DNA of 64,000 nt. Source: Candidatus Campbellbacteria bacterium GW2011_OD1_34_28 (lineage in GTDB: Bacteria; Patescibacteriota; Minisyncoccia; Phycocordibacterales; UBA12079). The stretch spans positions 618,303 to 682,302 of the forward strand of contig CP011215.1 of assembly GCA_001029775.1 (NCBI GenBank), in the 5' to 3' direction. Positions 5,965 to 53,424 of the stretch are shown here, one piece after another. The notes beneath the pieces are model-generated. The model saw only the letters and a program-made list of their open reading frames with translations, did no database searches and was not told the DNA's origin. Every line of letters begins with the position of its first letter. Positions within the stretch are counted from its first letter, which is position 1. The position numbers and the translations under genes were made by a program.

Positions 5965-6085
5965 AATCAAAAATTGGATGAAGTTCGAGGAAACAAAAGA
6001 AAAAGCCCCGAGGCGTATGTTTATTACGACGAGGGGCTTTTTCTTGCAGTTGACGAAGAAATTCGTCAATTTTGGATTAAATCTT
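5965..6085. repeat. Conserved ~120-bp two-hairpin element, copy A. Overlaps the ychF stop codon.
   Basis: About 80% identical to 33600-33725. Contains AAAAAGCCCC-N23-GGGGCTTTTT and GACGAAGAAATTCGTC hairpins. The ORF 5978-6184 predicted over it is probably spurious. Confidence 0.8.
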
Positions 6086-10617: not shown

Positions 10618-10626
10618 AAATATTTT

Positions 10627-11142
10627 TTATGTATTACTCTTTTTTGTTTTTTTTATCTCTTTCCATATTTTTTTGGATTCATCATAAACAATTATTACGC
10701 CTGGGATTATAATCAAAATTGCGAAACCAAAAGGTTTTCTTGCTTCTTGAACAACATAACCAGCATAAGGTAAACTAAACAAAACTTTTCCAATTACATC
10801 TTCTTTCGGGACATCTTTTGGGTCTTTGTCATCGTTGGCGTCTCCTTTTGTTATGTAATAATAATCCCCTTCTATCACTTTTATATCTACAATCCTGTGG
10901 GTGATAGGGGTCTCACTTTTATAAACATCACCAAAAGTTATAACATCACCTACCTGATAATCATCACTCGGTTTTATTACAGCTACACTTCCCGTCTTTA
11001 TTGCCGGCTCCATTGATCCAGACTGTACAACTCTTAATTCATAGTTACCTGTTATGGGGAAAATTGATGCAATCATGAGAACAGCCATTAAAAATATCGC
11101 GAAGACAACTATGTAATAAATGATTTTAATTAACTTATTCAT
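10627..11142 (-). CDS. sipW: Type I signal peptidase of the SipW/Sec11 (S26B) type (171 aa).
   Basis: N-terminal TM helix, the SGSMEP catalytic Ser motif, and ITHRIV (His). It sits directly downstream of two SipW-cognate-signal proteins. Confidence 0.8.
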   Translation of the reverse strand: MNKLIKIIYYIVVFAIFLMAVLMIASIFPITGNYELRVVQSGSMEPAIKTGSVAVIKPSDDYQVGDVITFGDVYKSETPITHRIVDIKVIEGDYYYITKGDANDDKDPKDVPKEDVIGKVLFSLPYAGYVVQEARKPFGFAILIIIPGVIIVYDESKKIWKEIKKTKKSNT

Positions 11143-11266
11143 ATCTTTGTAACGGACTTTGTTAAAGCCTTTATTGACCGCCCGAACTTACCTCACAGTT
11201 CAAGCGGTCTAAAAAGTTTCAAACTTTTTAAAAGAGAATCGAAATTAGAAATTAGTGTTTCTAGTA

Positions 11267-12568
11267 CTAATCTAGTTCCTCTTCGTCTAGGTTGATATTT
11301 TCACAAGAGAAGTTCTCATTGTTTCTTACTTGTTCCGCGTAAGCAGTCAGACTTGCTTCAAGCGAATCTGATTGCGCGTCATCAAGCATTCCACTTCCAT
11401 CACAATTAATTTCTCCTGTTGTGTGATTTACTTGGATATCTCCGGCACACCAAGCAAAGCCTACATATCCTGTTGGGCCACCTCCCGCAAGTGACATCTG
11501 AATAACTTCTGTTTGGATATTTCCCTCATACAGACTATCCTCTGTATTAGGTTCATAAACGCCATCGCCGTCATCTTCCCAAGCAAAAATATTGATGTAA
11601 TCGGAAAGCTCCCCTAAACCTGCAGGATTTCCGCTGGTAAGGGTATCTCCTACACTTTCTTCTGTTTCAAGAAGCTCATTTTCTTCATCATTCATGTCAT
11701 GTATTATCAAACATGCGTAAGCATCATTTGAATTGACATGTAAAGAAATTAGGTTTGTTCCCCAATCAGATGGTTTTACATCCCCAAAATTGAAGAATTT
11801 TTGTGATCCGTCAAGATCAGTTTCTCTCCAAAGTTGACAAGCTTTTTTGAATTCACTATTTGCGTCACAGTCTTCTGCATCGCGAGTAACAGTGAGGTAG
11901 TAAAGCAAGCCTCCTGGATTATTAAGTGGGGTGTTGTATGCAGGATTAGTTTGGGTTAAATTAGTTACAACAAATGTAAGTGTGTTTTCACCCGGTACAA
12001 CCTGCGCCAAGAATGACGCTTCTGATACAGGGTCAAGTGTTGTATATTGAGCACTTCCCGAACCAGCTGAAATGGATACTCCGTTTAGGAATAATTCATA
12101 TTGGTTATCAGCTGCAACATCCATCACTAAATCAACACTAACAGCATCACCCCACCAATCGAATTCATGTTCAAAGGTGTAAGTAACATTGCCATCTGTA
12201 CCATCATCACCAACTAAAGTAGCTGGAGAAGCCCAAATCCATTGTGCTGTTGGATGGGTTGTCCAATACTGGAGAGTAATGGGTGTATCAATTACGATAG
12301 GAGCTTGAAATGGAAATACTGTAATTTCTGTATTAACACCAGAAACAACATCTGCTCCACCATCGCCACTGAAAAGTACCAGTGAGCATGATTCACAGTC
12401 ATCGCCATTATAAGTTTGTGCCAAATGATCTACTTTGAGGTCAATAGATCCGGCAGTGAATATGTTTCCTGCCGAGGTTTCTGTGTCATTGAAGAAAGCA
12501 TAAGTTCCTCCAATAATCACCGCCCCGGCCAAAACAATCGTGCCTAGGCTAAAAATTATTTTTTTCAT
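11267..12568 (-). CDS. TasA/camelysin-like secreted protein with a SipW-cognate class signal peptide, paralog 2 (433 aa).
   Basis: N-terminal ...GGTYAFFNDTETSAGNIFTAGSIDL is the classic SipW-cognate motif (AFFxDTETS..N.FtaG.lDL). Shares the KFFNFxDxKPxDxGxNxISLHV and C-terminal Y.EQ.RNN.F.C blocks with ORF 12596-13753. Confidence 0.75.
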   Translation of the reverse strand: MKKIIFSLGTIVLAGAVIIGGTYAFFNDTETSAGNIFTAGSIDLKVDHLAQTYNGDDCESCSLVLFSGDGGADVVSGVNTEITVFPFQAPIVIDTPITLQYWTTHPTAQWIWASPATLVGDDGTDGNVTYTFEHEFDWWGDAVSVDLVMDVAADNQYELFLNGVSISAGSGSAQYTTLDPVSEASFLAQVVPGENTLTFVVTNLTQTNPAYNTPLNNPGGLLYYLTVTRDAEDCDANSEFKKACQLWRETDLDGSQKFFNFGDVKPSDWGTNLISLHVNSNDAYACLIIHDMNDEENELLETEESVGDTLTSGNPAGLGELSDYINIFAWEDDGDGVYEPNTEDSLYEGNIQTEVIQMSLAGGGPTGYVGFAWCAGDIQVNHTTGEINCDGSGMLDDAQSDSLEASLTAYAEQVRNNENFSCENINLDEEELD

Positions 12569-12595
12569 GTTTTTAAGTTAGCTTTAGTCTGATAA

Positions 12596-13753
12596 TTACA
12601 GATCTGAATCTGTGTATGTTATGAGATTTAACTCAAACAAAGATTCTATTCCCACTGGCCATGTGGTTACGCTATTAGTTCCTGAGTTATATTCTGATGA
12701 TTTTATTACCCAGATTTTTGCACCTCCTGGATAATTAGCATCGGCTGAATCAGGAAGATTCATTCCCAAATTTACATCTCCTGAAACACTGGCATCACCA
12801 CTGCCGTCAGTTGTCAGTGTTCCGATTAATGCGCCTGGATTATTTCCTGGCCATCCATCAGCATAATAGATGATACTGTATTGAGTTGAAGCAACTAAAC
12901 CAGATACATCTAATGTGTAGTTAAATGTTGGGTGAGACGAAATGAAAGTTAATTCTCCTTCAACCCCATCATCTAGATAAGGATCCCATGTACCATCAAT
13001 ATCTTTGTTTTCTAATTTAAGAACAGTTCTCACTGGTTCTTGATTGTTTATACTTCCACAGACAAATTCATCATTGTTTCTTGCTTGTTCAACATAGAAA
13101 CTAATGTCACCTGTCATACTATCTGTTTGGATTTCGTTTCCAACTGATGCTGGAACACTCCATGAAACACCAATGTATGTAGTAGATGCTCCTGTCAATG
13201 GACCTGTTGCTGTTGTTGAGTCATAGATAGACAAAACACCATTGGCAGGATTACCTGATGTCAATGTTTGTTCACTTCCGTTTTGAATATTGTCGCCTGC
13301 AACCCCACCGCCTGCGCCATTATCTCTCCAGACGTTCCAAACCATAACACTTGATAGTTCACCATCGTTTACGCCAGTAGTTAAATCTACTGAAGCTTCT
13401 GGTTCTGTTTGACCGTTTTCAAGATCAGTCAAATTGGAAACTTCTGCACAAACCCAAGCGTCATTATTGATAACATGCAAACTGATGGTATTCTCTCCAG
13501 AATCCCCTGGTTTTATGTCATCAAAATTAAAGAACTTATCCGATGTTGGGATTAGATCTTTTTCTGCCCAAGTTGCGGCTTCAACATCCTCTCCATTATA
13601 GGTAGCAGTGCTATCTATTCTTAGATCGATTGCCCCAGCCGTAAAGGTGTTTCCTGTAGACGTTTCAGTGTCACTAAAGAAAGCGCCTGTAGCTCCAATA
13701 ATTATCGCTGCTGCTGCGACAATTGTCGAAGCACTAATGATTATTTTTTTCAT
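12596..13753 (-). CDS. TasA/camelysin-like secreted protein with a SipW-cognate class signal peptide, paralog 1 (385 aa).
   Basis: N-terminal ...GATGAFFSDTETSTGNTFTAGAIDL. Paralog of ORF 11267-12568. Confidence 0.75.
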   Translation of the reverse strand: MKKIIISASTIVAAAAIIIGATGAFFSDTETSTGNTFTAGAIDLRIDSTATYNGEDVEAATWAEKDLIPTSDKFFNFDDIKPGDSGENTISLHVINNDAWVCAEVSNLTDLENGQTEPEASVDLTTGVNDGELSSVMVWNVWRDNGAGGGVAGDNIQNGSEQTLTSGNPANGVLSIYDSTTATGPLTGASTTYIGVSWSVPASVGNEIQTDSMTGDISFYVEQARNNDEFVCGSINNQEPVRTVLKLENKDIDGTWDPYLDDGVEGELTFISSHPTFNYTLDVSGLVASTQYSIIYYADGWPGNNPGALIGTLTTDGSGDASVSGDVNLGMNLPDSADANYPGGAKIWVIKSSEYNSGTNSVTTWPVGIESLFELNLITYTDSDL

Positions 13754-20108: not shown

Positions 20109-20888
20109 TTATTGTGCTGTACGGAAAGAAGCAGGAGTGGTTATGCTCACATTTTTTGATGAGTCAAACACCACAATCAAATAGTAATATGTTGTATTTG
20201 ATGTGAGGTTATTGATGTTTACCGTGTGAGTAACACGGGCAAGACCATCATATTGAGCCAATGTTCCAGTTACTATAGGTTCTCCTGAGAAAACTCCAGT
20301 TGCATCAAATATATTACTTATTCTAATAGGTGATGTACTGTAATATACTTTTCCCATAGAAGCTTCACTTGCTGTCCAAGTAACGGATGCTCCATCATTA
20401 TCAGTAGTTACATTTATACTTTTTATTGTAGGAGCATAAACATCCCCACCAACATTTCCACCACCTCCAAGTCTTGCATTAATAGCAGCTTGTGTTAGTG
20501 GACCAACACGACCATAACCAGTTGTCGCTGGTGTTCCTTGGGAAACGATTCCCACCGATGTTTGAAATCTTTCTACTGCTGCTTTGGTAAGTTGACCAAA
20601 GTATCCAGTAACCAAACCTTCAGGATAGATACTCACATCTGTAGCGAGATATGTCTGAAGTTCAGTGACTTCCGAACCACGGTCACCAAGGTCCAACTGA
20701 CTAGTGATGACAGCATAGGCACTTTGAACGCCAAAGACCAACAAAGCAAGCATGGTCATCATTGTCACACCAAAGAGAAAACCTATGCGTGGTATATTCT
20801 TTTGTAAATTTATTATTTTGTTCATGTTATTTTTGTTTAGATTAATAATAGAGATTGTTAAGTTAAAATGTTTTACATGATCGACCAT
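20109..20888 (-). CDS. Secreted protein with a peptidoglycan-binding domain (PG_binding_1) and a C-terminal Ig/FN3-like beta domain. An internal ATG at 20825 is possible.
   Basis: Signal/anchor helix. DLGDRGSEVTELQTYL...DGYFGQLTKAAVERFQ matches the PGBD consensus. Confidence 0.65.
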   Translation of the reverse strand: MVDHVKHFNLTISIINLNKNNMNKIINLQKNIPRIGFLFGVTMMTMLALLVFGVQSAYAVITSQLDLGDRGSEVTELQTYLATDVSIYPEGLVTGYFGQLTKAAVERFQTSVGIVSQGTPATTGYGRVGPLTQAAINARLGGGGNVGGDVYAPTIKSINVTTDNDGASVTWTASEASMGKVYYSTSPIRISNIFDATGVFSGEPIVTGTLAQYDGLARVTHTVNINNLTSNTTYYYLIVVFDSSKNVSITTPASFRTAQ

Positions 20889-34730: not shown

Positions 34731-34757
34731 GAGTCTATTATATTAATTAATAATTTT

Positions 34758-34982
34758 TTAATCAATGTTAATACTCAGCAGTTTTGAAGGTGATTGGTGT
34801 CCATTAATGATTTTTACTTTTCCCTCAACAACTCCAAAATGACGAGCCACAAGTTCTATTATTTTTTTGTTTGCCATATTCATTTCCGCTTTCTCTTTTA
34901 CTTTTATTTCAAAACGGTTTTCAGAAGTTTGGACAACCTCTTCTCTTTTTGATTTAGGATATGCTTTTACTTTTATATACAT
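34758..34982 (-). CDS. DUF167/YggU-family protein (74 aa).
   Basis: IKVKAYPKSKREEV...NMANKKIIELVARHFGV...VKIINGHQSPSKLLSI resembles the UPF0235 YggU pattern. Confidence 0.6.
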   Translation of the reverse strand: MYIKVKAYPKSKREEVVQTSENRFEIKVKEKAEMNMANKKIIELVARHFGVVEGKVKIINGHQSPSKLLSINID

Positions 34983-34994
34983 ATATAAATAAAA

Positions 34995-35339
34995 CTATAT
35001 TTGAGTTGCGTATTTTCTTTTGTCTGTTTTTTCTGCCCATTCATAAAAAGCACTAAAAATGGCAATATAAACAGCAACGACAAGAAAAGAAAACAAAACA
35101 GTAAAAAAACCATTTCCGTTTCCAAAAGATGATTCAAGCTCTGCTACAAATTGCATTACATTTGCAGATATGTCTGGAAAAAATATAGCAACAGGCATAA
35201 ACAAGAAAACAGCAACACTAATAAAAGGTTCGGCATAGCTATAATCAATAGGAACAATGAGCATTGCCGAAACACCGTAAATGAGGAGGAACATTAAAAT
35301 GATTATGGCGACTTTAAAGATATATAGTATTTCACTCAT
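34995..35339 (-). CDS. Small membrane protein (114 aa), three TM segments.
   Basis: Hydrophobic ORF. No family assigned. Confidence 0.45.
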   Translation of the reverse strand: MSEILYIFKVAIIILMFLLIYGVSAMLIVPIDYSYAEPFISVAVFLFMPVAIFFPDISANVMQFVAELESSFGNGNGFFTVLFSFLVVAVYIAIFSAFYEWAEKTDKRKYATQI

Positions 35340-35440
35340 ACAAATATTATACCACCAAAAAACCCGAATTAAACATTTTACTTTTTCAAAATTTTTGTTA
35401 ATATTGTATCTGTTAAGTTAATACAGGACTTAATAACATT

Positions 35441-35460
35441 CCGCGGTAGCTCAGTTGGCT
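35441..35460 (+). repeat. Duplicate of the first 19-20 nt of tRNA-Asn (TCCGCGGTAGCTCAGTTGG), followed by a non-tRNA sequence.
   Basis: Identical to 35625-35643. No cloverleaf can be formed downstream. Confidence 0.75.
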
Positions 35461-35624
35461 AAAAAGCGTTTAAGCTTTTTAGGTGGTTTCGAGCGAAGCG
35501 AGAAAATTGTCCAAGTCGAGTTTACGAGACAGGACAATAAATGGAAGAGCGATCCTTTGAATACAGTCGTTCGCGATTTGTGCTAAAGATCATGTCTTCT
35601 AATTGTAGTTTTGAAAATAAATAT

Positions 35625-35697
<73 letters not shown>

Positions 35698-35744
35698 CAA
35701 AAACGATTAAGTCCCAATATGCAATATTGGGGCTTTTTCGTTTT

Positions 35745-35930
35745 CTTTCGCGGCAGGACTCGAACCGAGCGAAGTATGAAGGAGCGACTGAAAGGAGCGA
35801 CGAACACGAGCGAGCGGGGGTCGAGAGTTCTTAGTGAAATTGAGTCCCGAAGGGCAAAAATTTCACTTAGAACTGGCGACCAAGTCCTGCCCGCTCTGAA
35901 CTAAAAACCGGCGACCGAGTCCTACCCACA
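35745..35930. repeat. Degenerate partial copies of the tRNA-Asn 3' half. An inverted copy CGCGGCAGGACTCGAACC lies at about 35745-35770. Direct fragments GTCCTGCCCGC and GAGTCCTACCC lie at about 35878-35925.
   Basis: Matches the tRNA T-arm/acceptor sequence on both strands. ORFs 35541-35834, 35583-35807 and 35719-35904 over this region are judged spurious. Confidence 0.7.
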
Positions 35931-35990
35931 AAACAAAATACAAACAAAAAATCCCCAACATCATTGGGGATTTTTAAATAAAATTTAGAT

Positions 35991-36317
35991 TTAGAAATGT
36001 TTTGCCAAATGCTTCCACCCAGCTTTTACTTCTTTACTCAAATCCTTAACTTCTTCTTCTGTCATCTTCTTTGCTTTCCCATATTTTACAACGGACTCCT
36101 CCATAAATTTTTTAAAATCTTCCTCGGTCATTTTCTTAACTTTCTTAATTTTAGGAGATACTGATTTATAAAAATCTGCGATATGCTTTTTAACATCTTT
36201 TTGTACCTCTTTCCCCTTTTTTGAAGTAATGAATAATCCAGCAGCAACACCTAGAACGGCCCCTGCTAAAGCTCCTTCCATTACTTTTTTTGTTCCGCTA
36301 ACTTTTTTATTTGACAT
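35991..36317 (-). CDS. YtxH-like small protein (108 aa).
   Basis: N-terminal ...GALAGAVLGVAAGLFITSKKGKE... resembles the YtxH/DUF948-associated family. Lys/Glu-rich. Confidence 0.45.
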   Translation of the reverse strand: MSNKKVSGTKKVMEGALAGAVLGVAAGLFITSKKGKEVQKDVKKHIADFYKSVSPKIKKVKKMTEEDFKKFMEESVVKYGKAKKMTEEEVKDLSKEVKAGWKHLAKHF

Positions 36318-36346
36318 ATTTTTATTTTTTTTAATTTATTAAATAA

Positions 36347-36625
36347 TTATTTTTTAGACTTTTTCTTGTTTTTTACAGATTCTTCTTTTTTCTTGAAAAA
36401 AAATGAAAGGATCGGCAATGTAGCTAAAGTCTTTAAAACATACTCTAAATTATCAGACAAATCTTCTGACATCTCTTCTATATTTTCAGATATCTTATCT
36501 AAAGATCTGGCAACTTTAATTAAGTGGTAAAAAATAATAATTGTCAGAACGCCTAATATAATTACTGCAAAAGACACAGAAAGATAAAATAATATTTGTG
36601 AAAAAATTAAAATGTTTATTACCAT
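36347..36625 (-). CDS. DUF948-like small membrane protein (92 aa).
   Basis: N-terminal TM helix followed by a charged helix. Adjacent to a YtxH-like gene, which is a common pairing. Confidence 0.45.
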   Translation of the reverse strand: MVINILIFSQILFYLSVSFAVIILGVLTIIIFYHLIKVARSLDKISENIEEMSEDLSDNLEYVLKTLATLPILSFFFKKKEESVKNKKKSKK

Positions 36626-36748
36626 AGAATAATTTTAGCACGAAATATTATGAAAAAATATAGCCCCTTTACAGCACAAATATAAAAATGTATATTTCGG
36701 GCAGAAACGGTAGTTAAAATCAACAAAAAATATGGGAGGAACAAATAA

Positions 36749-37099
36749 ATGAAGGCAAAACTTGACGGAACACCCGTTAAATTTGATCAACCATTTCTCT
36801 GTTTAAGAACGACAACGAAAAATGTTGGCTGTGTTGGTGATATGTACATTGATGTTGGAGGAAAAGTAAAACTCTACATCGATAATAAAAATAAACCCAC
36901 ATCCAAACTTATAGAGCTTTGCAAGCTTCTTGCTTCCAGAGGTCACAAAGTAACACATTTTGGAACATATGAGGGATCAGCTGGTCCTAACTACATTTTA
37001 AAATGTGGGGCATTGTTTACCCGCTGGGGAAAATTTGAAACAGGCGAAGGAAAAGAAATTAAAAAATTTAAAACTCCAGAGTATTTAAGACATTGGTAA
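36749..37099 (+). CDS. Hypothetical protein (116 aa).
   Basis: SD GGGAGG 8 nt before the ATG. Confidence 0.5.
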   Translation: MKAKLDGTPVKFDQPFLCLRTTTKNVGCVGDMYIDVGGKVKLYIDNKNKPTSKLIELCKLLASRGHKVTHFGTYEGSAGPNYILKCGALFTRWGKFETGEGKEIKKFKTPEYLRHW

Positions 37100-37380
37100 T
37101 AATACCGAAACAAGGAGGCCAAACAGTGTCAGATCAATCGTTGCAATATTGGAGAAAAAAACAAGCAGCTAACGACAACAACCCCAACAAAATACTCCTC
37201 TTGTTTGATATGAGAACAGCACACGCTCTTTTTGAACACAGCCTCAATGCCGAGACAGCTTCAAAAATGACAGACAAAGAGTTGCTGTCTCTAAAAAATA
37301 TTGGACCCACGGCTGTAAAATCTATCAGGAAAGCAATGAGAACCGCGCAAAAAGACAAAGGCGAAAAATTCTCTGTTTAA
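37093..37380 (+). CDS. Small protein with a C-terminal helix-hairpin-helix resembling the RpoA-CTD fold (95 aa).
   Basis: ...ELLSLKNIGPTAVKSIRKAM.... Confidence 0.4.
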   Translation: MVIIPKQGGQTVSDQSLQYWRKKQAANDNNPNKILLLFDMRTAHALFEHSLNAETASKMTDKELLSLKNIGPTAVKSIRKAMRTAQKDKGEKFSV

Positions 37381-37452
37381 ATTATTTATCTAAATACCCC
37401 AAATAATAGTTCGAAAAACCGAGATCAGATAATAAGAAAAACAGCTGATTTT

Positions 37453-37480
37453 CAAAACCACCCCTACGGGTGGTTTTTTG
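37453..37480 (+). terminator. Rho-independent terminator.
   Basis: AAAACCACCC ctac GGGTGGTTTTTTG. Confidence 0.75.
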
Positions 37481-37559
37481 TTTCCTACTTGGTAACTTAT
37501 TGTTACAATATTTATATTAAAGACTTAAAAAGTTTAAGATAAGTATTTTTTTATAAAAT

Positions 37560-37802
37560 ATGAAAAAACCAACAATCACAGGACAAATAAACATAAAAAT
37601 ATTTGAATTGCTTGAACAACATTCAGATGGTTTACGTTGGTCAGAACTTATATTAAAAATTAAAAAATCAAATCCCAATCTTCACCCAAAGACAATCAAT
37701 GGATGTATTTGGAAACTTGTTCAAAAATTTCCTGACAAAGTCTACAAACCATCTAAAGGAGTTTTTCGTTTATTAAAATATAAAAACACCAAAACAAATT
37801 AA
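37560..37802 (+). CDS. Small winged-helix protein (80 aa).
   Basis: Pattern ...IFELLEQHSDGLRWSELI...INGCIWKLV... suggests a wHTH. No family assigned. Confidence 0.4.
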   Translation: MKKPTITGQINIKIFELLEQHSDGLRWSELILKIKKSNPNLHPKTINGCIWKLVQKFPDKVYKPSKGVFRLLKYKNTKTN

Positions 37803-37895
37803 TTTTTTGATACCCCTTTACACACCCCTTTAAATATATTATTCTTCAAAAAGAAATTTGATCAAAAAAGACAAAAATAACGAGGAGACTCTCAA

Positions 37896-38216
37896 ATGCC
37901 AAAACATGATCTATTTTTGTTGGTTGATTACGATGTAATAAAAAGCAAGGCTTGTTTTTCAACGAATATACAACAAGAAAAAGTCGCTGATGTTATCGTA
38001 AATTTTCTTCGAACACAAATCGGAGCAGGAAAAGACACCTCAGAAGCGAATATTCTTGATTTGTACGAGGTCGATCTTTTGTTAGACCTATCTACCGATA
38101 CATTTTCAGTATCATCAAATTGCGGAAATCTTGGTTTAAGAGACGGTATATTACATCACCTCTTCACAAAACTGAGAATTACAGAAATAAATCATGGTCA
38201 GCAACCCTCTTTCTGA
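37896..38216 (+). CDS. Hypothetical protein (106 aa).
   Basis: SD GAGGAG before the ATG. Terminator at 38198-38230 overlaps the stop region. Confidence 0.5.
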   Translation: MPKHDLFLLVDYDVIKSKACFSTNIQQEKVADVIVNFLRTQIGAGKDTSEANILDLYEVDLLLDLSTDTFSVSSNCGNLGLRDGILHHLFTKLRITEINHGQQPSF

Positions 38217-38230
38217 GGGTTGCTTTTTTC
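38198..38230 (+). terminator. Rho-independent terminator.
   Basis: AGCAACCCTC tttctg AGGGTTGCTTTTTTC. Confidence 0.7.
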
Positions 38231-38322
38231 TCTATCAAACGCTTTACAATAATTTCTAATTTATATATAGTCTTTACTAGATAAAATGTCCTTAATATAA
38301 ACGTACAAAAAAGGTAAAACTA

Positions 38323-44780: not shown

Positions 44781-45998
44781 TTATATAAATTCTTTTCTTC
44801 GTTTTTGTTTGTGAAATTTGATAGCAAAACGATGTGCTTCACTATTTGCAAGCAAAATATCTCTTTCATTTTTACTTATTATTTCAGAGTTACCTAAAAA
44901 GCCTCTTGCTCTGTGGTGTTCGTCTTTTGTCACCGCAACAACCGATATTTTATATCCAAAATCTGACAAAACTTTTTCAGCAATATTTTTTTGTGCCTTT
45001 CCACCGTCAACAATTATTATTTTTGGCATTCTCCATTCATCGTGTGCAAATCTTCTTTCCAATATTTCTTTTAATGCTCCCGTATCTCCACCCCCAACAC
45101 TACGAATATTAAATTTTTTGTATTCAGATGTTTTTATCATTCCCCCTTCAATGACTGTCATCACCCCTACCCTGTTTTTTTCCGACATATGAGCAATATC
45201 GTACGCTTCTATCCTGTTTCCTTCAGAGATATTCTGTTCTTTTAATAAAGCGATATCTTGAATATGTGACAAAGCAAAAATCTGTCTCTTTGTCTTGTCT
45301 GCTTTTTCAAATTCTTGTTTTTTAACAAAATCTTTCATATCTTTTTCCAATTTTTTCAAAAGAGATTCTTTTTTGCCCTCAAAAAACATTTTTATACTTC
45401 TGACAGTCTTGTTATAATCGCTTTTCAAAACGACAGAAAAATCAGGAGATAATCCCAATTCTACATTTAAACCAGACTTTATCTTTTTTTTATTTAGGTC
45501 TCGGGGACCTAAGTCTTTTTCACCACGAAATGGAAAAATCTTTCTGACTATTTTCAATGCCTCTTTTAGTTGTAGTGCATAAGGAAAAGGTCCAAACTGA
45601 TATTTGATATCAAAGCCCAAATTTTCTTTGTGTTGTAAATCGTGTTCACGAACCAAAATTATACGAGGATATTCTTCGTTCGTTATTACGACATGATTGT
45701 AGCTCTTGTTATCTTTACCAATTGTATTAGCAGAAGGATTGTGTTTTTTAATCAAATTGGCTTCCAAAATCAACGCTTCTAAAACGGAATCGGTTTCTTT
45801 CCAATCTATATCATCTACCAACTCCATCATTTTTGTTATCTTTGGCCCCCTTCTCAAAACAAGATCATCACCAAAATAACTCTTTATTCTATCGTGCAAA
45901 GAAGTTGCTTTTCCGATATACAAGACGGACTTGTTTTTTTTGAATAGGTAAACACCTGGAGAATCAGGCATTTTTTTAAGCTTTTGAGATAAATTCAT
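44781..45998 (-). CDS. uvrC: Excinuclease ABC subunit C-like (short form, 405 aa).
   Basis: N-terminal GIY-YIG (PGVYLFKKNKSVLYIGKATSLHDRIKSYF). Central UvrC region. C-terminal RNase H-like endonuclease region. Appears to lack the long HhH tail of canonical UvrC, which is about 600 aa. Confidence 0.75.
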   Translation of the reverse strand: MNLSQKLKKMPDSPGVYLFKKNKSVLYIGKATSLHDRIKSYFGDDLVLRRGPKITKMMELVDDIDWKETDSVLEALILEANLIKKHNPSANTIGKDNKSYNHVVITNEEYPRIILVREHDLQHKENLGFDIKYQFGPFPYALQLKEALKIVRKIFPFRGEKDLGPRDLNKKKIKSGLNVELGLSPDFSVVLKSDYNKTVRSIKMFFEGKKESLLKKLEKDMKDFVKKQEFEKADKTKRQIFALSHIQDIALLKEQNISEGNRIEAYDIAHMSEKNRVGVMTVIEGGMIKTSEYKKFNIRSVGGGDTGALKEILERRFAHDEWRMPKIIIVDGGKAQKNIAEKVLSDFGYKISVVAVTKDEHHRARGFLGNSEIISKNERDILLANSEAHRFAIKFHKQKRRKEFI

Positions 45999-46135
45999 AT
46001 TTTAAATTCCAAATTACAAGCACCAAACCACAAACAATATTCAAATTCTAATAACCAAAATTCAAAACTATTTAGTATTTGATGTTTATTATTTAATTTT
46101 TGTTTGTAATTTGTTATTTGTAATTTGTGATTTTG

Positions 46136-48757
46136 CTACTTCAGATATCTTTTCAGATAATCACCAGTATAAGACCCTTCGGTCTCTGCCACTTCTTCCG
46201 GTGTTCCTTTTGCAACCATTTTTCCTCCGCCAATACCACCATCTGGTCCGATATCTATAATATAATCCGAAGATTTTATTAAATCCATATTGTGCTCAAT
46301 CACAACAACAGTGTTGCCTCGGTCCACCAATTTTTGCAATATTTCTATCAGTTTTTTTACATCATCATAATGCAGACCGATTGTTGGTTCGTCCAAAAGA
46401 TAAATAGTTTTTTGAGTGATTGGGCGATACAATTCGGAAGAGATTTTTACTCTCTGAGACTCTCCTCCCGATAATGTAGATGCAGGTTGTCCCAATTCTA
46501 AATATCCAAGTCCTACATCCATCAATGTTTTCAACCTATCATAAATTGCTGGAATATCCTCAAAAAATTGTAACGCTTCTTCTACTGTCATAGACAAAAC
46601 ATCGTGTATATTTTTACCTTTGTATTTTATTTCCAAAGTTTCTTTGGTAAATCTTTTTCCATTACATACATCACAATTTACATGAACCGTCGGTAAAAAG
46701 TGCATCTCTACAGCGATTTCTCCCTTTCCTTCACACGCTTCACAACGACCACCTTTCACATTGAAAGAAAATCTGTTAGCCTTCCAACCTCTTGCTCGCG
46801 CCTCGCTAGTATAAGCAAAAAGATCTCGGATATGCGTAAAAGTACCCGTGTATGTTGCAGGATTTGAACGACTGGTTCTGCCGATTGAAGACTGATCAAT
46901 CAAGATCACACGACTCAAATATTCTGTACCAGTAAATTTTGCACAATTAAAAACAGAAGCAGAACGATACTTTCTATCAAATCTTGCCTGCAAATTTTTA
47001 TGTAATATTTCATACATAAAACTGGATTTTCCAGAACCAGAAACACCTGTGATTGTCACAAATTTTCCCAAAGGCACTTCTGCCTTCATATTTTTTATAT
47101 TAAATACTTTTCCTCCTTCTATTTTTAGAGAACCCTTGTCACTCGTCCTTCTTTTTTCTGGCAATTCTATTTTCTTTTCTTCTCGCAAATATGCCAAAGT
47201 ATTTGAACCAGAATCGTTATATTTTGCCTTTAACAAATCATCTAAGTATCCAGAAACTATTACTTCTCCTCCGTGCACACCCGCCCCTGGACCGATATCA
47301 ACAAGATAGTCGGCAGAAAAAATAGTATCCTCGTCGTGTTCTACAACAATAATAGTATTGCCCAAATCTTTCAATCTCAACAATGTCTTTATCAATCTGT
47401 CGTTGTCTTTAGAATGAAGTCCTATTGTCGGTTCGTCCAAAACATACAAAGCACCAACAAGCCCAGAACCAAGCTGACTTGCTAGACGAATTCTTTGAGC
47501 TTCTCCACCAGACAAAGTATTGGCGCGTCTATCCAATGTTAAATATTCAATACCAACATTTATCATAAAACTTAATCTCTCCAAAATCTCTCGCACCACT
47601 ACTTCTGAGATTTCTTTTTCTTTTTCGCTCATTTTTACATTTTCAAAAAAATCTTTTGCGTCTGAAACAGAAAGAGCTGTCAATTCTACTATATTTTTTT
47701 TACCCCATTTTTCGCTAGTCAAAAAAATATTCAAAGCCTCTGGTCGCAAACGAGCACCATTACACACAGGGCAAGATTCTTTCACCCAAAAATCTGCAGT
47801 TCCTAAACCGTTACATTCTGGACATGCTCCATAAGGCGAATTGAAAGAAAAAAGTCTTGGCTCTATTTCAGGATATGAATATCCGTCAAAAGGACAAGAA
47901 AATTTTGTAGAAAGTAACAATTCTTCTTTGTCTGAGAAAACATTTTTTACAAGACCGTTTGATTCTATTACTGCTTTTTCAATAGCGTCACGCAATCTCT
48001 CCAATGTCGCTTTTTTAAGTGATTCTTTGATCCCAATCAAATCTTCTTTTTTATCATATTCAAAATCAGATAAATCAATACTATCAATCACAATACTGAT
48101 ATCGTGTTTTTTTGTTTTAGTTAATTCTATTTTTTCTCGCAAACTATATTTTTTGCCATCTATTACAACACTTGTATATCCTTTACCTAAATAATCATAC
48201 AGCAACTGGTAATACTCGCCTTTTCTACCTCGGACAACTGGTGCTAAAATATCCAATTTTTTTGTTCCCTCTTTAGATTTTTCTTTTATTTTTTTCAAAA
48301 TAAATTTTTGAATTTCTTCGTTAGAAAGTTTTTCTATTTTTCTTCCGCATTCCAGACAATATGGGTGACCAACACGCGCATACAAAATACGCAAATAATC
48401 ATAAATTTCTGTGATGGTCGCTACGGTTGAACGAGGGTTGTTGGAACGAGATTTTTGATCAATAGAAATTGCAGGAGAAAGTCCGATAATTTCGTCTACA
48501 TCCGGTTTTTGCATTTGAGAAATAAATTGTCTGGCATAAGCGGAAAGCGATTCAATATATTTTCTCTGACCCTCGGCAAAAATAGTATCAAAAACGAGAG
48601 AAGATTTTCCGGAACCAGAAAGACCCGTAACCGCGACCATTTTGTTTCTAGGCATTTTTACGGTGATGTTTTTGAGGTTATGTGTCCTTGCTCCTCGCAC
48701 CTCAATCCAATCGTGTGGGTTAACCCCGCTATTCTTTTTTTCTTTTTCTTTTGACAT
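46136..48757 (-). CDS. uvrA: Excinuclease ABC subunit A (873 aa).
   Basis: Two ABC ATPase modules ([10 protein letters not shown]; GVSGSGKSS). Zn-finger CxxC clusters. LSGGE signature motifs. Confidence 0.95.
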
Positions 48758-48991
48758 AGTTTTTTAAAAAGCTAACAGCTAATAGCCGATAGCTTATAGC
48801 AACAACGAACGAATTTTTGCGAAGCAAAAATTCGTCTCCACCTAAACGCTACACGCTAAACCCTATACCCTTATCATTTCCTCAGAAATGATAAAACTCC
48901 CCCTGAAGAGGATTACTTCTATATAGTAATTGAATAGAAAACCAAAAGCAACGATTTGGGGTTTATTTAATTTTTATTTCTTACTGGGGTT

Positions 48992-51031
48992 TTATTTTCT
49001 CTTTAACGGTTTTAGTTTTTTATTTTCTTGTGTTTTATTAGACATTTTTTCCAATTCTCTAATCTCATCTCTCAAAATAGCTGCTGTTTCAAAATCCAAA
49101 ATTTTTACAGCCGAATCCATTTGTCTTTTCTTTTCTATAACAAATCTCTTTGGATTTTTTTTCATCAATTCCAAATCCACTGCCAAAAGATTTCCAACGA
49201 TCTTTTCATGTTCACTACGCATCTGATCGGCGATGCTAGTGATTTTTTTACTAATTGTTTTTGGAGTAATGCCGTGTTTTTCATTGTACGCTATTTGGAT
49301 TTTTCTACGACGATCTGTTTCTTCAATCGCTTTTTGCATTGATTTAGTAACGTGGTCCGCATACAAAATCACTCGCCCATCCACATTTCTGGCAGCTCGT
49401 CCGATTGTTTGAATAAGAGAAGTTGCAGAGCGCAAAAAACCTTCCTTGTCTGCATCCAATATTCCAATCATAACAACCTCTGGCATATCAAGACCTTCTC
49501 GGAGCAAATTGACCCCAACCAAAATATCATATTTTCCTTTTCTAAAATCAGTAATTATATCTATTCTTTCAACTGTTCCAATATCGCTGTGTATATAAAC
49601 AGATTTAATTCCTCTCTCGTCCAAATATTCTGATAAGTCTTCTGCCATCTTTTTGGTCAATGTAGTTGCCAAAACACGCCCACCTTTTGCAATGGTTTTT
49701 TCCGCTTCGGCAATAAAATCTTGTACCTGCCCACCATGATCTTTTACCTGCTGAATTGGTTTTACAACAATCTGTGGGTCAACAAGACCTGTCGGACGAA
49801 TAATTTGTTCTGCAATATTTGTTGAATGTTCCATTTCATAAATCCCCGGAGTAGCGGATGTATAAACCACCTGTCCAATTTTCTTTTCAAATTCTTCAAA
49901 TGTTAGAGGTCTATTGTCCTTTGCACTTGGCAATCTAAAACCATATTCCACCAAAGTATTTTTTCGTGATCTGTCCCCTGCATACATGCCACCGATTTGT
50001 GGCACCGCTACGTGAGATTCGTCTATCACAGTCAAAAAATCTTCTGGAAAATAATCTAACAATGTGTAAGGTGGTTCACCTTCTTTTCTTTCGTCAAAAT
50101 ATCTGGAATAATTTTCTATTCCACTCACATAACCAATCTCTTTCATCAAAGCGATGTCGTATTTTGTACGCCTTTTTATTCTGTCCGCTTCCAACAATTT
50201 TCCCTCTTTCTCAAATTTTTTTAATTGTTTTTCCAAATCTTTTTCTATTTGTTTCAAGGCCTTTTCTTTTTTCTCTGGATTGGTAATAAAGTGTTTTGCA
50301 GGAAACAAAAAGTATAAATCTTTTTCTTCTAAAATAATTTGTGAAACGGGATCTATTTTTTGAATAGAATCTATCACGCCCCCTTCTATTTGAATACGAT
50401 AATTTTGCTTTTCATTAACGGGCATTATTTCTATTGCATTTCCGATCACACGAAACTTACCTGGTTCCAAATCGGCATTGGTTCTTTCAAAGAAAAGCGC
50501 TATCAAATCTCTGATAAATTTTCCTTGATTTATTTTTTCTCCCTTTTTTATTTTTAAATGAATTTTTTCATACTCTGTTGGGTTTCCCAGACCATAAATA
50601 CAAGAAACGGTTGCCACAACAATAACATCTTTTCTTGTCAGCAAAGATTGGGTCGTCGCATGTCGCAACCTCTCTACTTCGGCATTTATACTCGCCTCTT
50701 TTTCTATATATGTATCCGAAACAGCAACATAAGCTTCGGGCTGATAATAGTCGTAATAAGAAACAAAATAATGTACAGCATTTTCCGGAAAAAATTCTTT
50801 ATATTCTTGCGCCAATTGAGCAGCGAGGGTTTTGTTGTGGGTGATAACCAAAGTCGGTTTGTTTATTTTTGAAATCATATTGGCAACTGTAAAAGTCTTT
50901 CCTGATCCCGTGACACCCAAAAGAGTCTGGTGTCTCTCACCTTTTTTAAGACCTTTCATCAGAGATTCTATCGCCTGCTCTTGATCGCCTGCTGGTTTAT
51001 ATTCTGAATGTAATTTAAAATCAACTTTCAT
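48992..51031 (-). CDS. uvrB: Excinuclease ABC subunit B (about 679 aa). The track ORF starts at 51079.
   Basis: Helicase motifs (GVTGSGKT, DESH). Beta-hairpin region. C-terminal UVR domain (ILRDEIRELEK). Confidence 0.95.
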   Translation of the reverse strand: MKVDFKLHSEYKPAGDQEQAIESLMKGLKKGERHQTLLGVTGSGKTFTVANMISKINKPTLVITHNKTLAAQLAQEYKEFFPENAVHYFVSYYDYYQPEAYVAVSDTYIEKEASINAEVERLRHATTQSLLTRKDVIVVATVSCIYGLGNPTEYEKIHLKIKKGEKINQGKFIRDLIALFFERTNADLEPGKFRVIGNAIEIMPVNEKQNYRIQIEGGVIDSIQKIDPVSQIILEEKDLYFLFPAKHFITNPEKKEKALKQIEKDLEKQLKKFEKEGKLLEADRIKRRTKYDIALMKEIGYVSGIENYSRYFDERKEGEPPYTLLDYFPEDFLTVIDESHVAVPQIGGMYAGDRSRKNTLVEYGFRLPSAKDNRPLTFEEFEKKIGQVVYTSATPGIYEMEHSTNIAEQIIRPTGLVDPQIVVKPIQQVKDHGGQVQDFIAEAEKTIAKGGRVLATTLTKKMAEDLSEYLDERGIKSVYIHSDIGTVERIDIITDFRKGKYDILVGVNLLREGLDMPEVVMIGILDADKEGFLRSATSLIQTIGRAARNVDGRVILYADHVTKSMQKAIEETDRRRKIQIAYNEKHGITPKTISKKITSIADQMRSEHEKIVGNLLAVDLELMKKNPKRFVIEKKRQMDSAVKILDFETAAILRDEIRELEKMSNKTQENKKLKPLKRK

Positions 51032-51119
51032 AACAACACTATATAACAAGAGACAAAATGATGCTATATATTTAAACATTGGACAAAAACAAAAAAATAC
51101 TCTAGTCTAAATATAGAGC

Positions 51120-51407
51120 ATGGCTGTGATAGCCCCAAATTTCTTGGAGGGAGCAATAACCAACGATCAGAGGAACTGGAGGTCCCTCAATCAAACAGAG
51201 ACAAAAACAAACTCTCTCAAAAAAATTCAAGAGGACACGAAAATGCCCAGCAAAGACGACGACATCACCTACAGTGACAATCTTGCACCCCCCTTCTCCA
51301 CCCTCGTCGGTGTTGAGAGTGGAAGAAGAGCCGAGGACGAAGACGGTAACCGTGGTTACGGCAAAACCGACGAAGAAGCCCGGGAAGACCTCGAGCGCCG
51401 CAAGTAA
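51120..51407 (+). CDS. Small acidic protein. The 54-aa form MPSKDDD...GYGKTDEEAREDLERRK starts at ATG 51243 after SD AGAGGA. The 95-aa track ORF has no SD. Markedly GC-rich compared with its surroundings.
   Basis: The coding segment 51243-51407 is about 55% GC by eye against roughly 33% for the window. Strong SD and terminator. No family recognised. Confidence 0.4.
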   Translation: MAVIAPNFLEGAITNDQRNWRSLNQTETKTNSLKKIQEDTKMPSKDDDITYSDNLAPPFSTLVGVESGRRAEDEDGNRGYGKTDEEAREDLERRK

Positions 51408-51443: not shown

Positions 51444-51476
51444 AAAAACCGGAGCATCACGCTCCGGTTTTATTAT
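51444..51476. terminator. Bidirectional terminator.
   Basis: AAAAACCGGAGC atca CGCTCCGGTTTTATT. Confidence 0.8.
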
Positions 51477-51491
51477 TTTCCTATTTTTTAT

Positions 51492-52031
51492 TTAATCATC
51501 CTCAAACTCGTCTTCACCTCCATTATTTATCGGTTGAGAAGTTGGCAATACGTTTGTATCTATCGTATTTGTTGTGCCTGTATTTTGACCAGAAACAGAT
51601 TTTATTTGAAAATCTCCTACATAATAATTTTTCAATATATCATAAGCAGTACCCGAATGTTTATGTCCACCAAGAATACCTGCAAAAAGATCTGTTGCTT
51701 CTTTTCCGCAACTGCTGACCAAGGTTTGTGTTCCACCCGGGTGAGCTGTCATATACGAAGTAATATTGTAAACCTTTCCGTCGACGACCATCCAACAATC
51801 ACTTTGCTTATTGTGTTGCGCAACAACAGAAGCACCCAACAATTTATTATTAACACCAGCGCTATTATTGATGTTACCCTCTGCAATATTAGAACCATTA
51901 TTATCAACAATTTCTAATCCCTGATTCACACTGTTTGGTTTACTAAATTCATAAGCAGTAAGACCAGCCGATAATATCGCCGTAACTACAATTCCAAAAA
52001 TAAACAAAGTTACAATAAATGTATTTTTCAT
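51492..52031 (-). CDS. Membrane-anchored cytochrome b5-like heme-binding domain protein. The track ORF starts at 52082.
   Basis: ...HNKQSDCWMVVDGKVYNITSYMTAHPGG... (the cyt-b5 HPGG motif). N-terminal TM. A start at 52031 removes the overlap with the upstream FRE gene. Confidence 0.65.
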   Translation of the reverse strand: MKNTFIVTLFIFGIVVTAILSAGLTAYEFSKPNSVNQGLEIVDNNGSNIAEGNINNSAGVNNKLLGASVVAQHNKQSDCWMVVDGKVYNITSYMTAHPGGTQTLVSSCGKEATDLFAGILGGHKHSGTAYDILKNYYVGDFQIKSVSGQNTGTTNTIDTNVLPTSQPINNGGEDEFEDD

Positions 52032-52035
52032 GTTT

Positions 52036-53352
52036 TTATAATAGCTTAAATTCTTCCGTATGGATAGAATTTTTCTTAACACCTAATAAAACAAACTGTT
52101 TTTTGAGATTATTCATCATATTAAAAGGTCCACACATAAAAATATCTGTCTCTTCCAAATTTCCAACAGCATTGTTGATCACACCCGCATTTAAATGACC
52201 ACTTTCATCCGATGTATACAAATTTATTTTAATATTTTTAAGTTCTTTTTCTATGGCTAAAATCTCATCCACAAAAACTTTTTCATCGGCACTTTTGGTT
52301 GTGTAATAAAAATCTATTTTTAGACCATCGTGTTTATTCACTTTTAAATCTCTTAACATACTCAAAAACGGAGTTACACCAATACCGCCCGCAATCCAAA
52401 TCTGTTTTTTGTATTTACTTTTTAAATATGAAAATTCTCCAAAAGGACCTTCTATTTTTGCAATAATTCCTGTCTTTAAATTTTTTAATTCAGATGTCCA
52501 ATCACCAAGCGCTTTTATTGTAAGACGCAATTTATCATCATGTGGAGCCGAACTGATTGTAAATGGATGATATTCGTTGGAAACGTTTGCTCCTTCAAAT
52601 TTGATAAAAATAAACTGTCCAGCAGTAAATTGTATTTTTTTGTCCCTCGGGTTCATTATTATTTCTACAACATCTTTACCAAAAATATTCAAAGACTCAA
52701 CAATGTAAGTGATTTTTTTTGTCATAAAATTTCCAAGAATTGAACGCTGAAGATAAACTAGAATAGCAATGGCAGAAAATCCCAATATATAAACTCTCAG
52801 AAAAATATCTTGCGAAACATCACTCGGTGTCAAAAAAGTATGTAATGCTCCCAAGAAAAAAGCCGTTCCCAAAAATTTGTGAGCAAATTTTAAATTTGGA
52901 TATTTCCATTTTGCAAAAAAAGTTACAATCAAAATTGTTATCATTAGCAAAAGTGAAAAAATACCGAAATTAATTGTCCAATTTGAACTTGGTATTAAAA
53001 ACTTTGCCGAGGTAATAACAGAAATAGGAATAAGTTTTATGGCCAAAAGCAACGGATGTATTGCAAGAAAAACAAAAGATATCACACCCAATTTGTGGTG
53101 AATATTATAAACCTTGTCCAAACCTCCAAAATAATTTTCCAGAAAATGCAAACGGGCGCTTAGAATCAATGTAATAGCAAAAAGAATAATGCCTAAAAGG
53201 CCTGTTATTTGTCCAAAGCTAGTGAATATAGAGAAAAAATCTACAAATCTAGAATCAAGTGGTTTCATTATAATCCACAAAATCAACGGAATAATCGCGA
53301 TAAAAAATATAAAAACAATCCCCAGCCTATTTTTTAACCTGTGTGCTGACAT
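52036..53352 (-). CDS. Ferric-reductase/NADPH-oxidase (FRE/NOX) family oxidoreductase: ferric_reduct 6-TM heme domain plus FAD- and NAD-binding domains (438 aa).
   Basis: The TM domain has paired His (HKLGVISFVFLAIH...). HPFTISS (FAD). GGIGVTPF (NAD(P)H). C-terminal ...CGPFNMM.... Confidence 0.8.
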   Translation of the reverse strand: MSAHRLKNRLGIVFIFFIAIIPLILWIIMKPLDSRFVDFFSIFTSFGQITGLLGIILFAITLILSARLHFLENYFGGLDKVYNIHHKLGVISFVFLAIHPLLLAIKLIPISVITSAKFLIPSSNWTINFGIFSLLLMITILIVTFFAKWKYPNLKFAHKFLGTAFFLGALHTFLTPSDVSQDIFLRVYILGFSAIAILVYLQRSILGNFMTKKITYIVESLNIFGKDVVEIIMNPRDKKIQFTAGQFIFIKFEGANVSNEYHPFTISSAPHDDKLRLTIKALGDWTSELKNLKTGIIAKIEGPFGEFSYLKSKYKKQIWIAGGIGVTPFLSMLRDLKVNKHDGLKIDFYYTTKSADEKVFVDEILAIEKELKNIKINLYTSDESGHLNAGVINNAVGNLEETDIFMCGPFNMMNNLKKQFVLLGVKKNSIHTEEFKLL

Positions 53353-53424
53353 GACATAATTATAGCAAAAGAAAAAAACAGCGCTATTAACAAGACAAAT
53401 ATTTTATGTGTTAAAATAAAAGGC

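Follow-up and report, generated by a model that had tools for sequence, protein, structure and literature searches.

A conserved gene pair for a NOX-like flavocytochrome and an anchored cytochrome b5: a probable module for transmembrane electron export

We analysed a 64-kb stretch (GC ~34%; hereafter the window) of contig CP011215.1 from Candidatus Campbellbacteria bacterium GW2011_OD1_34_28, a member of the candidate phyla radiation (CPR), in which a gene for a NOX-like flavocytochrome is followed immediately by a gene for a membrane-anchored cytochrome b5. From their sequences and modelled structures, the two proteins probably constitute a minimal two-component transmembrane NAD(P)H:cytochrome-b5 oxidoreductase in which the b5, lying outside the cytoplasm, serves as the acceptor. 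An earlier description of the locus (the original prediction) had seen in it a NOX-like module that would carry the electrons of NAD(P)H across the membrane to a b5 outside the cytoplasm. This proposal is consistent with every test run, namely the four haem-ligand histidines and the SpNOX fold of the reductase, the axial histidines of the b5, the conserved pairing of the genes, the signal peptides and lipoboxes of b5 homologues, and the alignment of the b5 cysteine pair with that of cytochrome b558.

The reductase and its cytochrome b5 partner

By every sequence and fold criterion applied, the upstream protein belongs with SpNOX in one branch of the NOX/FRE family, and an oxidase activity is predicted for it. 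Pfam detects the domains Ferric_reduct (PF01794, residues 50-168, E 4e-11, above the cut-off), FAD_binding_8 (PF08022, E 6e-17) and NAD_binding_1/6 (PF00175/PF08030, E 7e-12 and 7e-9), and phmmer aligns the protein over its full length with SpNOX (8qq7/8qt6, E 2e-31), the four histidines included. The AlphaFold2 (AF2) model, with a predicted local distance difference test score (pLDDT) of 89, contains six long helices and in Foldseek superimposes as a whole on SpNOX 8qt6 (template-modelling score TM 0.81/0.88, rmsd 3.0 Å); its dehydrogenase domain matches that of SpNOX (8qq1/8qq5) at TMt 0.87-0.92. Pfam, motifs and model agree on the six-helix ferric-reductase domain with HPFTISS and GGIGVTPF motifs that had been read from the sequence. 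Like SpNOX, the protein is a single chain that joins a six-helix di-haem domain to an FAD/NAD(P)H domain without regulatory domains (no EF-hand or other regulatory domain was found in it), and its invariant F435, the fourth residue from the C-terminus, is the counterpart of SpNOX F397, also four from the end (numbered after the PDB entry titles). The two proteins differ in that they are only 22-23% identical, in that loop C of the window protein is ~14 residues longer, and in that SpNOX has no known partner, whereas the window reductase gene has a b5 gene attached.

The bis-haem ligands on which the original prediction depended are present. H85 and H99 in the third helix and H158 and H171 in the fifth are all invariant in an alignment of 37 homologues, and their arrangement, H-x13-H with H-x12-H, is at the sequence level the bis-haem signature of NOX/FRE proteins. 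By analogy with H101 of NOX2, H85 would be a ligand of the inner haem, and H99 presumably one of the outer haem. Use of NAD(P)H requires the dehydrogenase domain to lie in the cytoplasm, and the membrane domain has six helices; therefore loops A (residues 30-38), C (106-124) and E (175-182), together with the haem held by H99 and H171, should lie on the outside. When b5-paired homologues were compared with unpaired ones, loop C was longer in the paired proteins, and P100, L103, A115 and P121 were enriched around the outer haem. These may be partner-specificity features, in a comparison that is suggestive only, confounded by phylogeny and containing only four high-GC sequences that passed the filter.

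The downstream protein is, as judged from its sequence, a bona fide bis-His cytochrome b5, nearest in its features to bacterial cytochrome b558, and is predicted to bind haem. Its Cyt-b5 domain (PF00173) spans residues 70-141 (E 1e-20), and Foldseek matches the modelled domain to rat outer mitochondrial membrane (OM) b5 at TMt 0.88, to many b5 structures at TMt 0.82-0.88, and to Ectothiorhodospira vacuolata b558 (1cxy) with rmsd 1.7 Å and 35% identity. The axial histidines H97 and H125 align with those of rat OM b5 and of b558 and, together with C79 and C108, are invariant in 20 b5 sequences. Across 41 b5 partners, conservation is 0.64 in the membrane anchor, 0.61 in the haem domain, 0.27 in the linker and 0.18 in the tail; the conservation of the anchor would fit specific packing of this helix against the reductase. 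The acidic end of the tail, in the form EDD or DD, recurs among CPR homologues. The window b5 and E. vacuolata b558 share the same fold and a cysteine pair at identical alignment positions, and differ in that b558 is soluble, with no known partner, whereas the window protein is membrane-tethered and has a long linker and an acidic tail.

The b5 domain is probably extracytoplasmic. We place it outside because homologues carry cleavable signal peptides or canonical lipoboxes (at locus L056, where the b5 is NOX-paired, and at L040, L055, L063, L070 and L075), because C79 and C108 align exactly, in a sequence alignment, with the two cysteines of b558, and because CPR b5 domains occur fused to Ig/fn3 surface domains. 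Cytochrome b558 is reported to be periplasmic, with these two cysteines disulfide-bonded.

Longer b5 homologues hold two tandem b5 domains. Giant CPR proteins (L043:5521-10395, L047:2545-4776 and also L031:2231-4117) consist of an N-terminal DoxX domain, three to five b5 domains and Big_7/fn3 modules, and one of them gives a weak cupredoxin-like match. Such DoxX/multi-b5 arrays are unusual and, from their domain composition, could act as an electron wire.

Recurrence and phyletic range of the pair

The pairing was scanned from both genes. A b5-centred scan with one genome per species gave 79 loci, 48 of which contain a NOX-like gene (tblastn and hidden Markov model searches agree). In 41 loci this gene lies directly upstream on the same strand, and in four the two genes are divergent. 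Gaps between the genes fall mostly between -4 and +28 nt, with a few larger, and -4 (an ATGA overlap) is the commonest single value; five or six of the NOX-negative loci are cut too near the b5 gene to judge. A second scan, of metagenome contigs and centred on the NOX-like gene, gave 80 loci, ~66 with enough downstream sequence, and a b5 gene lies directly downstream in 17 of these, including seven of the eight closest relatives of the window protein. Over 42 pairs, the distances between the reductases correlate with those between the b5 proteins (Mantel r 0.73, 0/2000 permutations), which shows that the pair is inherited and diverges as a unit; the correlation does not separate interaction from shared descent. 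Because of the domain E-values, and because the gene order is repeated in 59 independent loci and, in addition to these, in five genomes or contigs of Proteobacteria, a chance pairing is excluded.

According to deposited taxon labels, the pair is found in many CPR classes, in DPANN archaea (L033, L067 and L076 among them, each with an ATGA overlap) and on a Chloroflexia metagenome-assembled genome (MAG) chromosome of 2.3 Mb and 63% GC (L065). In several high-GC metagenome contigs, the NOX-like gene is overlapped by a gene for an anchored b558-type b5 of 120-135 aa. A search with one of these b5 proteins found 215 relatives, including those of cultured Rhodopseudomonas palustris, Rhodopila globiformis, Azospirillum and Dechloromonas, and of Accumulibacter. 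In each of the five proteobacterial genomes or contigs inspected (R. palustris HaA2, CP000250, region 4877874-4888245; Dechloromonas A34; Rhodopila globiformis; Azospirillum; and one metagenome contig), the b5 gene overlaps by 1-4 nt the end of a Ferric_reduct gene of 417-421 aa. Over its full length, the R. palustris reductase shares 28% identity with the window protein (E 4e-43), and the b5 paired with it has 1cxy as its first match (E 1e-21). Proteobacterial copies are often found among metal and metalloid genes: CusB/RND, ArsR-type regulators, Acr3/SBF and a bufferin operon.

A gene for a small protein precedes the pair in five proteobacterial loci (L160:3411-3734, L161:3421-3720, L162:3435-3737, L164:3413-3730 and L163:3262-3732). 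This protein of ~100 aa (156 aa as called in L163), which is not present in the CPR window, has no Pfam match, a hydrophobic, signal-peptide-like N-terminus, the motif GPWRAS..NTRGW..MTPEER..HQ, two invariant cysteines and an HH pair, and may be a third, periplasmic component. In one of these loci, on a metagenome contig (L164:5366-10369), the start of an ATP-synthase operon with ATPase_gene1, possibly of the N-type, overlaps the last 4 nt of the b5 gene, and the ATP-synthase genes appear to share one long operon with the pair.

Other arrangements of related b5 genes were also observed. The Micrarchaeota (DPANN) MAG L063 encodes a lipobox b5 (5878-6408) followed, after 15 nt, by a 222-aa protein (6423-7091) that consists of a PF01794 ferric reductase domain (FRD) only, without an NAD(P)H domain; the link between b5 and FRD therefore holds under a different reductase architecture. 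A CPR family (L020:5749-6450, L057:5749-6342, L066:5587-6312 and L072:5626-6318) joins a multi-helix N-terminal membrane domain to a C-terminal b5; Pfam sees the b5 part only, the start of the protein (...YK.LR.TAWLL...) is conserved, and none of the four has a NOX-like neighbour. In two further loci (L017:6667-6954 and L051:2726-3013), a NOX-less b5 gene is directly followed by a gene for a 95-aa KIHRY membrane protein with a weak PepSY_TM match (E 7e-4).

Proposed electron path and competing explanations

In the mechanism that we propose, the cytoplasmic dehydrogenase domain would transfer hydride from NAD(P)H to FAD, and electrons would then pass, one each time, from FAD to the inner haem (H85/H158), from there to the outer haem (H99/H171), and on to the bis-His haem of the b5 (H97/H125). 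The b5 domain would be held at the outward-facing side of the membrane by its N-terminal transmembrane helix and a flexible linker of ~33 residues, and reduced b5 would pass its electron to an acceptor not encoded beside the operon. Our best guess for this acceptor is an oxidant that is small or bound to a surface, for instance Fe(III) chelates, O2 or quinone-like compounds. In a fermentative CPR cell, the net result would be that NAD(P)+ is regenerated and reducing power is made available outside the cytoplasm. The step from outer haem to b5 is plausible because the outer haem of SpNOX is unusually solvent-exposed, with no O2 site validated (PMC11564096), and because SpNOX reduces cytochrome c directly, faster than it reduces O2 (PMC11564096; also PMC5676040); the SpNOX authors themselves noted that a protein acceptor may exist (PMC11564096; PMC5676040). 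The domain composition, the cofactor-ligand motifs, the SpNOX-like fold, the layout of the operon and the conserved, co-diverging pairing are shown by the present data; the outward orientation of the b5, direct transfer to it from the NOX-like protein, translational coupling, the terminal acceptor and the physiological role are inferred. Operation in reverse, with external b5 reducing NAD(P)+, was rejected as thermodynamically uphill.

Several observations weigh against this interpretation. Lysines lie on both sides of the b5 anchor, so that the positive-inside rule gives an ambiguous answer. No NOX::b5 fusion (Rosetta-stone) protein occurs in the 79 loci, only about one quarter of the sampled NOX-like genes adjoin a b5, which is thus not obligatory for the family, and about one third of the related b5 genes lack a NOX neighbour. 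Around the 59 paired loci there is no conserved third gene for a terminal acceptor, transporter or regulator, the commonest neighbour family occurring at only 10 of them and reflecting local synteny. Since the search gave no conserved gene for a terminal acceptor, where the electrons end physiologically is guesswork, and superoxide or iron, as named in the original prediction, is speculation. An exported b-type cytochrome also needs haem to be delivered outside the cell, which makes the haem supply of CPR cells a weak point.

The leading specific alternative is an assimilatory or extracellular ferric (metal) reductase, in which the external b5 would reduce Fe(III) or another metal, for uptake or detoxification, with its acidic tail attracting cations. 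We regard this as unlikely, although it is kept alive by the metal and metalloid genes that surround the proteobacterial copies. The family is that of the FRE ferric reductases, the acidic C-terminal b5 tail is kept in CPR homologues, and MsrQ-like clusters with a VIT1 iron transporter are known (PMC8238504); plant CYBDOM ferric reductases likewise pair a transmembrane di-haem b561 with an external b-haem domain. Set against these points, SpNOX reduces ferric iron directly only poorly (kcat 0.05 s-1; PMC11564096), no iron or metal transporter is conserved beside the pair in the 59 loci, and the Na_Ca_ex gene that neighbours it in the window is not among the recurrent neighbour families. More doubtful still is a genuine NADPH oxidase that would reduce O2 to superoxide at its outer haem, with the b5 as an accessory stabiliser (like p22phox or DUOXA) or modulator and not as acceptor. 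SpNOX does oxidise NAD(P)H with O2 and is described as superoxide-producing (PMC5676040; PMC11564096), but it lacks the O2-reaction centre of eukaryotic NOX proteins (PMC11564096). An anchor as conserved as the haem domain would fit a structural subunit seated on the NOX helices; yet the invariance of both axial histidines points to a redox cofactor under selection, and some b5 partners are lipoproteins without a transmembrane helix (L056). The window protein has Leu103 four residues beyond H99, and Leu is found there in 96% of b5-paired homologues, whereas in NOX2 the residue four positions past the outer-haem ligand H115 is His119, which together with an Arg belongs to the O2-reaction centre of eukaryotic-type NOX proteins (NOX2, NOX5, DUOX); the comparison with NOX2 is by spacing.

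It appears very improbable that the b5 faces the cytoplasm (N-out/C-in) and serves desaturases or hydroxylases, its adjacency to the reductase gene reflecting shared haem or redox regulation only. Eukaryotic b5 is cytosolic and serves lipid-modifying enzymes, homologues bear the JGI label 'cytochrome b involved in lipid metabolism', and the charge distribution around the anchor is not decisive. The signal peptides and lipoboxes of homologues, the conserved cysteine pair aligned with that of b558, the S/T/N-rich linkers and the Ig/fn3 fusions nevertheless argue for the outside; no desaturase or hydroxylase gene is present in the window or in the conserved neighbourhoods, and it is hard to see what part a b5 in the cytoplasm would play in the chain, the NOX-like protein having a cytoplasmic reductase domain of its own. 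The least credible explanation that we weighed is repair of the MsrPQ kind, with electrons ending on an extracytoplasmic methionine-sulfoxide reductase or other repair enzyme. MsrQ provides a precedent in the FRD superfamily for feeding a periplasmic protein (PMC11564096; PMC5676040); the window protein, unlike MsrQ, has its own NAD(P)H domain, a search of the window open reading frames (ORFs) of 120 aa or more gave no MsrP-type gene, and the 59 loci share no conserved third gene. The methionine-sulfoxide end point suggested in the original prediction is accordingly unsupported.

The locus, related systems and significance

The coordinates of the operon and its features are collected in Table 1. 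The NOX-like and b5 genes are best explained, from their arrangement, as a single transcription unit. The stop codon of the first (TAA, 52038-52036) and the ATG of the second (52031) are separated by exactly 4 nt (TAA-aaac-ATG), and the protein that follows carries both the Cyt-b5 domain and the N-terminal helix, as originally described. The start at 52031 is upheld, as is the anchor, a single hydrophobic helix at residues 3-29; the b5 read from this start is identical to the deposited protein P0001 (179 aa; 100% identity over 100% of the length). Proteins identical or nearly identical to those of the window bear the label Candidatus Campbellbacteria, a CPR/Patescibacteria lineage. A longer, GTG-started b5 ORF (51492-52082) was rejected, M1 being invariant in 20 homologues and the deposited protein having 179 aa. 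The two genes are likely to be translationally coupled because of the 4-nt gap, the lack of an obvious Shine-Dalgarno sequence at the b5 ATG (none precedes the NOX-like start either) and the frequent ATGA overlaps in homologous loci. The terminator-like hairpin beyond the b5 gene, which scores on the + strand too, marks the end of the two-gene operon. At the other end, the perfect TATAAT may tentatively be taken for a promoter, in which case the operon mRNA may be leaderless; a consensus promoter scan did not call it as a full two-hexamer promoter, its nearest call being 53597-53569.

Table 1. Features of the NOX-like/cytochrome b5 operon (window coordinates)
Feature	Position	Strand	Remarks
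NOX-like flavocytochrome gene	52036..53352	(-)	438 aa, stop included; Pfam, SpNOX match, AF2 model
Six-helix transmembrane ferric-reductase domain, residues 8-204	52741..53331	(-)	helices in AF2 model
His85 codon, third-helix haem ligand	53098..53100	(-)	invariant in 37 sequences
His99 codon, third-helix haem ligand	53056..53058	(-)	H85-x13-H99
His158 codon, fifth-helix haem ligand	52879..52881	(-)	H158-x12-H171
His171 codon, fifth-helix haem ligand	52840..52842	(-)	
Dehydrogenase domain, cytoplasmic, residues 214-438	52039..52713	(-)	Pfam; Foldseek to SpNOX dehydrogenase domain
HPFTISS FAD motif, residues 262-268	52549-52569	(-)	
GGIGVTPF NAD(P)H motif, residues 322-329	52366-52389	(-)	
Intercistronic spacer aaac, 4 nt	52032..52035	(-)	between NOX-like stop and b5 ATG
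Membrane-anchored cytochrome b5 gene	51492..52031	(-)	179 aa, stop included; Pfam Cyt-b5, Foldseek
b5 N-terminal transmembrane anchor, residues 3-29	51945..52025	(-)	model helix 3-29; hydropathy peak 6-24
b5 N/S/G-rich low-complexity linker, residues 30-62	51846..51944	(-)	pLDDT <50
b5 haem domain, residues 63-142	51606..51845	(-)	
b5 Cys79	51795-51797	(-)	
b5 axial His97 (in HPGG)	51741-51743	(-)	
b5 Cys108	51708-51710	(-)	
b5 axial His125 (in H-S)	51657-51659	(-)	
b5 C-terminal tail, residues 143-179, ending GGEDEFEDD	51495..51605	(-)	net charge -6
Terminator-like hairpin and T-run	51445..51471	(-)	21 nt past b5 stop; 12-bp stem, 6 GC pairs
TATAAT-like -10 hexamer (perfect TATAAT)	53359..53364	(-)	6 nt 5' of NOX-like ATG; read from sequence

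A domain scan showed the genes around the operon to be of the housekeeping type (LeuRS, YchF, ParB, MreB, MurA, TGT, Def and Fmt, and further L,D-transpeptidase, peptidases, UvrC/A/B, ABC-F, BipA and a DEAD-box helicase). The scanned window ORFs include no msrP (ORFs of at least 120 aa), apbE, FMN-binding partner, iron transporter or other redox enzyme. The minimal redox metabolism that the original prediction had ascribed to the organism holds as a statement about these 64 kb, and about them only. Directly downstream of the operon, uvrC, uvrA and uvrB are consecutive on the same strand (44781-51079); between them and the operon lie the two-strand terminator-like hairpin and a 95-aa plus-strand ORF (51120-51407) without a Pfam match.

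Elsewhere in the window, a sequence of 23-24 nt (35437-35460) repeats the 5' end of tRNA-Asn with 96% identity, 185 nt upstream of the intact tRNA-Asn (35625-35698). The copy is not called as a tRNA by ARAGORN or Rfam and may, from its sequence, be a recombination or integration scar. It adjoins a region of 3.6 kb (34750-38320) without an ORF of at least 120 aa (the largest has 116 aa), a gene density unlike that of the rest of the window, and within this region a Lys-rich ORF of 108 aa (35991-36317) has one hydrophobic segment. A cluster of ORFs at 8088-13753 and 20109-20888 gives weak partial matches to the Peptidase_M73/camelysin N-terminal segment, Lamin-tail, the purple-acid-phosphatase N-terminal domain and PG_binding_1; these ORFs may encode cell-surface proteins.

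The co-localisation of the two domains in CPR genomes had already been noted in a 2021 preprint, which found PF01794 with PF00173 in 185 of 1427 PF01794-bearing CPR genomes, speculated on a membrane complex of unknown function without proposing a mechanism, and did not see the co-localisation outside CPR (bioRxiv 10.1101/2021.11.17.468889, section 3.5). With PF01794 and PF00173 genes 4 nt apart, within the <=10 kb used there, the window is one more instance of these CPR clusters of pFre and a cytochrome-b5-domain protein (10.1101/2021.11.17.468889). The pFre/cytb5MY clusters of the same preprint are centred on the Tyr-ligated, MAPR-like cytb5MY and contain divergent b5-like genes and a two-component regulator (10.1101/2021.11.17.468889), whereas the window has a classical bis-His b5, two genes only, and no two-component gene among the ORFs scanned. 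Beyond this preprint, we found no literature on the proteobacterial pair or on a b5 as the partner of a NOX protein. What is added here is the reading of the b5 as acceptor, its extracytoplasmic placement, the tight operon, the link to cytochrome b558, and the extension of the range to DPANN, Chloroflexia and culturable Proteobacteria.

Other known systems resemble the pair in part. In MsrQ-MsrP and in flavinylation-associated MsrQ-like systems, an FRD membrane protein likewise feeds a dedicated extracytoplasmic redox protein, and many of the MsrQ-like proteins also carry the NAD-binding domain PF00175 (PMC8238504). The acceptor in those systems is either a molybdoenzyme or an FMN protein flavinylated by ApbE, mostly in Actinobacteria (PMC8238504), whereas the candidate acceptor in the window is a b-haem protein. 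Because the partner is a b-haem protein and neither msrP nor apbE was found, the window system is a member of neither group. In the NADH-cytochrome b5 reductase/b5 couple, an FNR-type flavoprotein reduces b5, and the window dehydrogenase domain matches the b5 reductases 2eix and 7rom; in the eukaryotic couple both proteins are at the cytosolic face, whereas the window pair would place a di-haem membrane wire between flavin and b5. Plant CYBDOM (b561-DOMON) proteins also combine a transmembrane di-haem module with an external b-haem domain, and differ in using ascorbate as donor and in having b561 and DOMON folds unrelated to those of the window proteins.

Bacterial NOX homologues serve as structural models for the human NADPH oxidases, and a protein acceptor yet to be named is suggested in the discovery paper of 2017 as well as in the cryo-EM paper of 2024 (PMC5676040; PMC11564096). 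The recurrence of a b5 gene within a few nucleotides of the reductase gene, in CPR, DPANN, Chloroflexia and Proteobacteria alike, makes the b5 a concrete candidate for this partner. The pair is found in the genetically tractable R. palustris and in Dechloromonas, and the hypothesis is therefore directly testable. If it is true, the orphan cytochrome b558 family would gain a function.

An outlet for NAD(P)H electrons would be a reasonable role for the pair in a CPR cell, described as non-respiring and as possessing unexplained carriers such as b5. A broader and much more tentative proposal, which we offer as unlikely but worth stating, is that in CPR and DPANN, which are without respiratory chains and c-type multihaem cytochromes, NOX-like proteins and tethered or polymeric b5 form a b-haem extracellular electron conduit that dumps fermentative reductant on the environment or the host surface, and that b5/b558 is the physiological acceptor of bacterial NOX homologues, in Proteobacteria too. 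The b5 proteins of such a conduit may range from those with one or two domains beside the reductase to DoxX-anchored surface proteins with three to five b5 domains. For CPR and DPANN organisms, which are regarded as non-respiring, the pair would be one of few candidate routes by which to shed reducing equivalents.

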